Source: Escherichia coli
GTDB lineage: Bacteria > Pseudomonadota > Gammaproteobacteria > Enterobacterales > Enterobacteriaceae
Strand: one strand, 5' to 3'
Assembly (NCBI RefSeq): GCF_003790525.1
Contig: NZ_CP033635.1
DNA: 64,000 bases
The notes under the pieces are model-generated. The model did no database searches. It worked only from the letters and a program-made list of their open reading frames with translations, and was not told where the DNA came from. A program made the translations under genes and the position numbers. Shown here in pieces: positions 48,092-48,152 of the stretch (its first letter is position 1; every line of letters starts with the position of its first letter).

Positions 48092-48152
48092 GTGTCCCAA
48101 TCATGCCCCAAAATGCCCCACAACAAATATTTTTGCCCCATGCATGCCCCAA
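48092..48152. repeat. Four to five direct repeats of (A/T)TGCCCCA about 120 bp inside the prophage end
   Basis: atgcccca at 48103, 48113, 48144; ttgcccca at 48133; gtgtccca at 48092. Confidence 0.6.

Follow-up and report, generated by a model that had tools for sequence, protein, structure and literature searches.

Predicted arm-type integrase sites in the attR of a P27-type prophage integrated in yecE of Escherichia coli

Within a 64,000-nucleotide stretch of the Escherichia coli contig NZ_CP033635.1 (assembly GCF_003790525.1; hereafter, the window), the host gene yecE is interrupted by one end of a lambdoid prophage, and five copies of the heptamer TG(C/T)CCCA lie just inside that end. These copies are, very likely, arm-type sites for the phage integrase (Int) on the P arm of the attR of a P27-type attachment site (att). 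We make this assignment from sequence comparison, because the motif is on both arms, is paired and phased, and is tied to an integrase with an arm-binding domain. We infer that Int, rather than another protein, contacts the motif, and likewise which of the sites would serve integration and which excision.

Results

A phased cluster of direct repeats near the prophage junction

Sequence reading and a pattern scan placed the five TG(C/T)CCCA copies on the plus strand, beginning at 48093, 48104, 48114, 48134, and 48145, so that the start-to-start steps are 11, 10, 20, and 11 bp, that is, a phasing of ~10.5 bp. A preliminary description of this DNA had reported a cluster of 8-bp direct repeats of the form (A/T)TGCCCCA, located about 120 bp inside the prophage end. 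Both points hold: the octamer fits four of the five copies, at spacings of 10–20 bp with the TGTCCCA variant included (the first copy, GTGTCCCA), and the copies lie 118–176 bp inside the yecE::prophage junction. The motif is not enriched in the window as such, since TG[CT]CCCA occurs 17 times on the two strands versus 17.6 expected from simulation, and TGCCCCA 8 times versus 9.35 expected; its significance is confined to clustering and phasing. Specifically, five copies fall inside 70 bp, where the maximum in 300 first-order Markov simulations was two, and three pairs spaced by 10/11 bp were observed, none of which arose in the same simulations. A Poisson estimate for the clustering is ~5e-9. 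Chance as the source of the repeats was ruled out by the clustering and phasing, although the overall motif count equals expectation. A similar ATGCCCCC near 51141 had also been pointed out, and we located it at 51140–51147, where it stands alone and departs from the full motif. With 32 occurrences of TGCCCC in the window, this sequence is at hexamer background, and it was rejected as part of the feature and attributed to chance.

The predicted sites Pa (TGTCCCA, 48093–48099) and Pb (TGCCCCA, 48104–48110), 11 bp apart, are the two halves of a universal core-proximal pair, and Pa is kept in P27, phi80, and CharmingMan. Pc (TGCCCCA, 48114–48120), 10 bp after Pb, is an extra, lineage-specific predicted copy, the equivalent of which reads CGTCCCG in P27 and CGTCCTA in CharmingMan, both degenerate, and is deleted in phi80, while phi330 has a third copy at the same relative place. 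The distal pair is formed by the predicted sites Pd (48134–48140) and Pe (48145–48151), both TGCCCCA, with Pe marking the outer edge of the att arm. This distal pair is also present in CharmingMan and Stx2 II, is partly degenerate in Rac, and is accompanied by two further copies in PHB10.

The motif recurs on the opposite arm, within the integrase gene

The other prophage end lies beyond the window and was represented by FDAARGOS_1283 (L007), which matches the window arm at 100% identity over 216 bp. In that genome, the prophage end has the order xis (DUF1233), the gene for a 437-amino-acid integrase, and the remainder of yecE. The preliminary description had proposed the opposite prophage end as a place to seek the motif, and two copies were found there, within the 3′-terminal part of int in this prophage type (ATGTCCCAATGATGTCCCA, L007 41623–41640), on the same strand as the window copies. 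The last int codons read gattaTGTCCCAatgaTGTCCCAtgg, with the two copies 11 bp apart and at distances of 83 and 72 bp from TTAACTGCGTG, which follows them and is the 11-bp P27 att. In the attP reconstructed from the two ends, 210 bp separate the first P′ (int-side) copy from Pa (48093), about 20 turns of B-DNA.

Besides its core-binding and catalytic domains, the cognate integrase carries a separate domain for arm-DNA binding at its N terminus. It matches the Pfam families Arm-DNA-bind_2 (residues 7–70, E 9e-24) and Phage_integrase, and residues 1–90 were predicted to adopt a beta-beta-beta-alpha arrangement (AlphaFold model from a 12-sequence alignment; predicted local distance difference test, pLDDT, 83). 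A sequence search of the PDB returned no close solved relative. Additionally, an inverted motif (TGCCCCAT on the antisense strand) was present inside int in several family members, 136–157 bp before the stop codon (minus-strand positions 2324 in L012, 2357 in L014, 2354 in L015, and 2357 in L016). Its position is that of the M-G-H codons in the conserved 'QMGH' catalytic box, and it is probably a coding coincidence.

Motif and geometry are retained across the integrase family

The integrase family comprised 184 phage records in tblastn searches. Its members include yecE-type Stx1/Stx2 (Shiga toxin) phages, P27, VT2-Sakai and Stx2 II (wrbA type), Fels-1, phages of Klebsiella, Salmonella, Yersinia, and Aeromonas, Rac of E. 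coli K-12, and, at 30% identity, phiCTX. We compared 12 attPs, that is, the reconstructed window type and those of 11 related elements with Int identities from 85% down to 30%; intact attP regions came from seven free-phage genomes (Int identity 85–60%). In all seven of the latter, the 3′ end of int contains two TG[CT]CCCA copies at an 11-bp spacing, and one or two more pairs (a triplet in phi330) follow 146–215 bp past the int stop, on the same strand. The arrangement extends to the full set, in that each of the 12 attPs combines an 11-bp-spaced pair, located beside or within the 3′ end of int, with one or two pairs on the opposite arm. These 12 span at least six different cores, and motif and geometry are kept with yecE, wrbA-type, ttcA, Klebsiella, Salmonella, and Aeromonas cores. 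The first P′ site is 207–211 bp from the first P site in nine of the attPs (198, 226, and 173 bp in the others), a distance held despite different cores and a mostly different sequence in between, and the core follows the P′ pair by ~83–93 bp. An unbiased k-mer count pointed to the same element: the only 6-mers present at least three times in most attPs were TGCCCC (10 of 12) and GCCCCA (9 of 12), and the runner-up, found in 4 of 12, overlaps the motif.

The more distant members carry variants of the motif. The Aeromonas phage pAEv1818 has CGCCCCA/TGCCCCA pairs and PHB10 has TTGCCCCTA copies, while Rac has TTTGCCCCCAATTTGCCCCA directly after the intR stop and four TTTGCC(C/A)C copies on its attR arm. 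In phiCTX, GTTCCCA pairs occur on both sides of the annotated attP core, within the regions annotated with repeats R1–R3. The genes beside the repeats vary, being Ant in Stx2 II, UmuD in pAEv1818, and unrelated open reading frames (ORFs) in RothC and IdasGreatGrand. Thus, the motif, which was present in every homologous attP examined, follows the integrase family and not the integration site or the neighboring genes, and the possibility raised in the preliminary description that homologous prophages would lack it was not borne out. With respect to the N-terminal domain, TG(C/T)CCCA is paired with YPTGVENHGG..., TTGCCCC(T/A) with PTGVEIRG... (Rac and PHB10), and GTTCCCA with ADGVEVRG... (phiCTX). 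This covariation is weak, with only three or four independent groups and Xis diverging in parallel; the pair geometry is kept.

The repeats and the adjacent cassette have different distributions

Between 47700 and 48600, the window holds the end of yecD, the first 96 bp of yecE (DUF72; 47880–47975, plus strand), and then a break in homology. The truncated yecE 5′ fragment, split from the remainder of the gene by the prophage and ending at the att core, was identified by translation and by alignment with the yecE fragment of phi80. A RefSeq partial coding sequence lies at the equivalent place in TUM1886 and in FDAARGOS_1283, and in the latter the yecE 3′ part follows int. The core itself is the 18-bp CGCCACTTTAACTGCGTG (47958–47975), which is identical at both prophage ends and lies downstream of int at 41698–41715 of L007. 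It contains the 11-bp sequence annotated as attR/attL of P27 (47965–47975); for Stx phages, the yecE att has been given as 21 bp (Nakamura et al. 2021, PMC8112680). Rightward of the junction are a dinI-like gene (82 amino acids, with a Pfam DinI match for 48238–48486), a gene for a 151-amino-acid sigma-like protein, one for a YadA/Eib-like adhesin, and tail-fiber genes. Because of this gene content and the P27 att sequence, the junction is regarded as the tail-fiber end (attR) of a lambdoid prophage in yecE.

The promoter of the dinI-like gene lies outside the att region (48173–48222, plus strand), with a −35 element TTGACA at 48173–48178 and LexA boxes (CTGT-N8-ACAG) at 48179–48194 and 48207–48222; phi80 has an annotated LexA site at the corresponding position. 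Together with the 151-amino-acid sigma-70 region-4-like gene (48869–49324, minus strand) and the adhesin gene (49386–51002, minus strand), the dinI-like gene makes up an SOS-controlled cassette. From ~48169–48170 rightward, a 1.8-kb query was 99% identical to prophages that have a dusA-specific integrase directly beside dinI. In an anchored comparison, identity set in at the dinI promoter, and the repeat cluster was not found in the dusA-type locus carrying the same dinI cassette. This cassette is swapped as a block between prophages with yecE-type and dusA-type integrases. The repeats belong to the integration module and not to the dinI/eib cassette, because the cassette homology starts past them and because they are absent from the dusA-type locus.

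The 216 bp from the core to this boundary (47960–48175) were found in 836 of 5,426 complete E. coli genomes, 560 of which match at only 60–80% identity, as well as in P27, PhiR49_2, P-EibC, and CharmingMan. Homologues also occur away from the phage's own attP, in phi80, mEp237, and PPompW prophages. Specifically, phi80 (L003 2921–3200), mEp237 (L010 ~2420–2700), and PPompW (L008 ~720–975), all of which integrate elsewhere, contain a fossil comprising the yecE 5′ fragment, core, and P arm of a P27-type attR at a site remote from their respective attP. The phi80 and mEp237 copies are regarded as fossils because they lie ~1.2 kb from the respective attP and are preceded by a yecE pseudogene; for the same reasons, phi80 Int was rejected as the cognate enzyme. 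Most motif matches have been lost in the decayed PPompW fossil, which reads CGTCCCA, TGTCCCA, TGCCCTA, and CGTTCCA. The 560 genomes with 60–80% arm identity may hold such fossil copies.

Constraint on the DNA and alternative explanations

All 87 of the int genes collected carry the P′ pair, with one single-base variant among them, and 65 have distinct 3′ tails. A scan of IMG/VR with an integrase alignment contributed 80 loci, nearly all of which are truncated within a few bases of the int stop and inform on the P′ pair only, not on the P arm. Across 38 distinct anchored int segments, mean column entropy was 0.13 bit in motif columns versus 0.84 bit elsewhere, and all five third-codon positions inside the motifs were invariant, while all 21 outside varied. 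Int proteins differ in the length and sequence of their C-terminal tail, in which only the motif-encoded residues (F/Y)(A/V)PxM(P/S)(H/Q) are conserved. Moreover, the P′ pair lies after the int stop in Rac and PHB10 and is hence non-coding there, so its conservation is not due to coding. The constraint acts on the DNA and not on an encoded protein, because the third positions are invariant, because the Rac and PHB10 pair is non-coding, and because a minus-strand ORF that overlaps the P arm is unconserved.

That ORF (58 codons, 47965–48141, minus strand; P27 L58, a RefSeq 'hypothetical protein') could in principle account for the P-arm repeats, which would then mirror a repeated peptide (W-G-x / L-G-H) of a real 58-amino-acid protein. 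It is open in the window, P27, PhiR49_2, and P-EibC, and is annotated in many genomes. However, it has no Pfam or PHROG match; its reading frame is interrupted in CharmingMan, where at most 27 consecutive codons stay open, and in phi80, through a 10-bp deletion; and conservation is lacking in the more distant RothC, IdasGreatGrand, and SP-016, which keep the repeats, while the motif recurs inside int in another frame and in non-coding Rac DNA. The ORF was rejected as a gene, which it very probably is not, and a coding origin of the repeats is scarcely credible. Only a little more room is left for an operator or activator array serving the adjacent dinI-like gene, or bound by the 151-amino-acid sigma-like regulator, an alternative that the preliminary description had offered as an operator for a phage regulator. 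The last copy does end 22 bp upstream of the −35 of the dinI-like promoter, and KplE1 (PMC2951348) gives a precedent for arm-type sites that also regulate transcription. Against this, the dinI/sigma-like/eib cassette occurs at 99% identity in dusA-type prophages that have no repeat cluster, the homology beginning past the repeats, so that across genomes we found the cassette without repeats and repeats without the cassette; the repeats track the integrase family whatever adjoins them (Ant, UmuD, or unrelated ORFs); and the dinI promoter already has two LexA boxes. An operator is thus unsupported and highly improbable, and even jointly the operator and coding explanations are very unlikely.

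A different protein of the recombination machinery might also be the ligand, namely the excisionase (a DUF1233/XisR-type recombination directionality factor), binding in the manner of lambda X1–X2 or the P2 Cox boxes. The repeats are phased direct repeats in the arm that holds the Xis sites in lambda, and a DUF1233 excisionase gene is beside int in every family member. Yet lambdoid Xis sites are on one arm only, between the core and the arm sites, and the motif is on both arms. In Rac, XisR shifted a 294-bp 'AttR' fragment and not a 291-bp 'AttM' fragment (Liu et al. 2015, PMC4632033). Mapping the published primers onto K-12, we found that AttM (L099 669–959) abuts the core and holds all four TTTGCCCC-type sites, and that AttR (L099 790–1083) comprises the same sites (the outermost overlapping the forward primer), the core, and 98 bp of host DNA. 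The negative electrophoretic mobility shift assay (EMSA) on AttM, which holds all four repeats, argues that Rac XisR does not bind the repeats on their own, evidence that is supportive rather than conclusive because XisR is only 33% identical to the Xis of the window phage type. Sites confined to one arm and bound by excisionase were not found, considering both arms of the 12 attPs and the Rac EMSA mapping, and we regard excisionase binding to the repeats as quite unlikely. Binding of Rac XisR appears to need the core or the 98 bp of host-side DNA, and not the prophage-side arm, an unusual location for an excisionase site.

Candidate accessory sites between the core and the arm sites

Three further elements lie between the core and Pa, and we treat them, on the model of lambda, as candidate Xis or IHF sites. 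A conserved core-proximal box, TTTTTAAAAATCACTAAAGAACGCCCAAGAGCA (47984–48016), may be where an accessory protein, either Xis or a host bending protein, binds. The box (AAAGAACGCCCAAGAGC; AAAGATCGTCCAGGAGC among relatives) is recognizable as AAAGATCGYCCARGAGC in 7 of the 11 attPs compared, with different cores and at a similar distance from the first P-arm site; among these 11, it is absent from Tritos, pAEv1818, Rac, and PHB10. An IHF-like site, AATCAAAGCGTTG (48034–48046, plus strand), matches the consensus WATCAANNNNTTR perfectly and is a candidate bend site, with one mismatch each in P27 and phi80 at the same place. The inverted repeat CATATGA-N13-TCATATG (48058–48084) is directly core-proximal to the first arm site and may be an excisionase or other accessory-protein site. 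Its P27 equivalent, CATACGT-N13-TCGTATG, is changed in both halves, and other family members have two ~10-bp repeats (CGAAATTT and ACGAACTT) at this position.

On the other arm, most family members have IHF-like sequences (0–1 mismatch, as consensus matches only) in the interval from the P′ pair to the core. One of these, AAAATCAGTA(A/G)GTTAG, is coding in the yecE clade and non-coding in RothC. IHF would thus be expected at 48034–48046 and at AAAATCAGTAGGTTAG, upstream of the core, and Xis within 47984–48084.

Discussion

If the five copies are Int arm-type sites, as the comparisons suggest, the integrase, encoded at the far prophage end outside the window, would engage them through its N-terminal beta-beta-beta-alpha domain, with the C-terminal domains holding the core in yecE (47958–47975) at the same time. 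The two copies in the int 3′ end would act on the opposite side of the core. Bends between core and arms would probably be made by IHF, with Xis joining for excision, so that Int could bridge arm and core in an integrative or excisive intasome, as in lambda and P2.

Some extensions of this scheme can be envisaged. By occupying the arm sites, Int may link dinI or int transcription to the intasome state, in the way that IntS acts in KplE1, an idea prompted by the location of the distal pair 22 bp upstream of the LexA-controlled dinI −35 and of the P′ pair inside the int frame. Additionally, integration and excision may differ in which of the two P-arm pairs they use, and the fossil attR copies of phi80 and PPompW may serve as secondary targets that bear arm sites and not as plain attB. 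Taken as one reading, such double-duty arm sites with differential pair use and arm-bearing fossil targets are unlikely.

Arm-type sites are an ordinary kind of element; what is apparently new is the consensus for the Stx-phage/Rac integrase family. This family moves many Shiga-toxin phages (yecE-type, Stx2 II/VT2-Sakai wrbA-type, and P27), Fels-1, Klebsiella phages, and Rac. Consensus pairs 11 bp apart in a fixed geometry offer a cheap means of delimiting attP, attL, and attR, of telling intact from decayed prophage ends, and of designing minimal att substrates for vectors or excision assays. Two oddities of annotation are also explained, in that the conserved FAPxMP(H/Q) island in the otherwise variable Int C-terminal tail would be imposed by the DNA sites, and the 58-codon ORF annotated over the arm in many genomes would be spurious. 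The accepted picture of how such integrases work is unchanged, and the finding should not surprise a specialist.

The classical case is the lambda attP, with the arm sites P1, P2, and P′1–P′3 alongside sites for IHF, Xis, and Fis. As in lambda, the integrase here is heterobivalent with a small N-terminal arm-binding domain, and a short motif unrelated to the core is on both arms, with tandem copies ~10–11 bp apart on the int-proximal arm. IHF-like consensus sequences likewise lie between core and arms, and the attP measures ~270 bp overall. The lambda arm motif is C/AAGTCACTAT, whereas here it is TG(C/T)CCCA and the arm domain belongs to the Pfam family PF12167. Further, pairs are on both arms here and all in one orientation, and the P′ pair is embedded in the int reading frame, whose stop codon precedes the core by ~20 bp. 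Lambda Int and the window-type Int are only marginally similar in sequence (E 0.004–0.007). For P2/186, the P2 consensus tgTGGaCa, read on the other strand as tGtCCAca, resembles TGTCCCA, which we take as a lead only, and the directionality factor here is a DUF1233 Xis, not Cox/Apl. Among P2-type integrases, only phiCTX Int was compared (30% identity). The phiCTX attP (NC_003278, R1–R3) is similar in having paired 7-bp motifs, spaced by 11 bp, on either side of the annotated core, in its annotated IHF sites, and in an integrase of the same broad family. It differs in the motif (GTTCCCA), in a pair-to-pair distance of 173 bp versus ~210 bp, in having both pairs outside int, and in its target, a tRNA-Ser gene.

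Searches concerning yecE, 933W, wrbA, the motif, and phiCTX returned no publication defining arm sites for the P27/Stx-phage/Rac IntR family, nor any that demonstrates direct binding of Int or its N-terminal domain to the motif or a need for the arms in recombination. For Rac (IntR/XisR, att in ttcA), the published mapping addressed XisR binding to the 294-bp fragment only, and not Int sites (PMC4632033). Its IntR is 44% identical to the window-type Int, TTTGCCCCC/TTTGCCCCA lie 11 bp apart beside int, and the four copies on the attR arm are ~105–150 bp from the core. Unlike the window type, Rac has its P′ pair just after the int stop because IntR is without the C-terminal tail, the last base of the motif is A/T/C, and the core is different. 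Finally, PPompW prophages contain a secondary target termed 'attB-in-PP_1', and the study that described it defines only the 21-bp yecE core and its PPompW copy (Nakamura et al. 2021, PMC8112680). The yecE-derived core is shared by this target, and the sequence after it is homologous to the window arm, at 71% identity. It differs in that a fossil is used as the target (attB) and not as a phage arm, with its motif copies mostly decayed, and from its sequence it appears to be a decayed attR with arm-site remnants rather than a bare attB.
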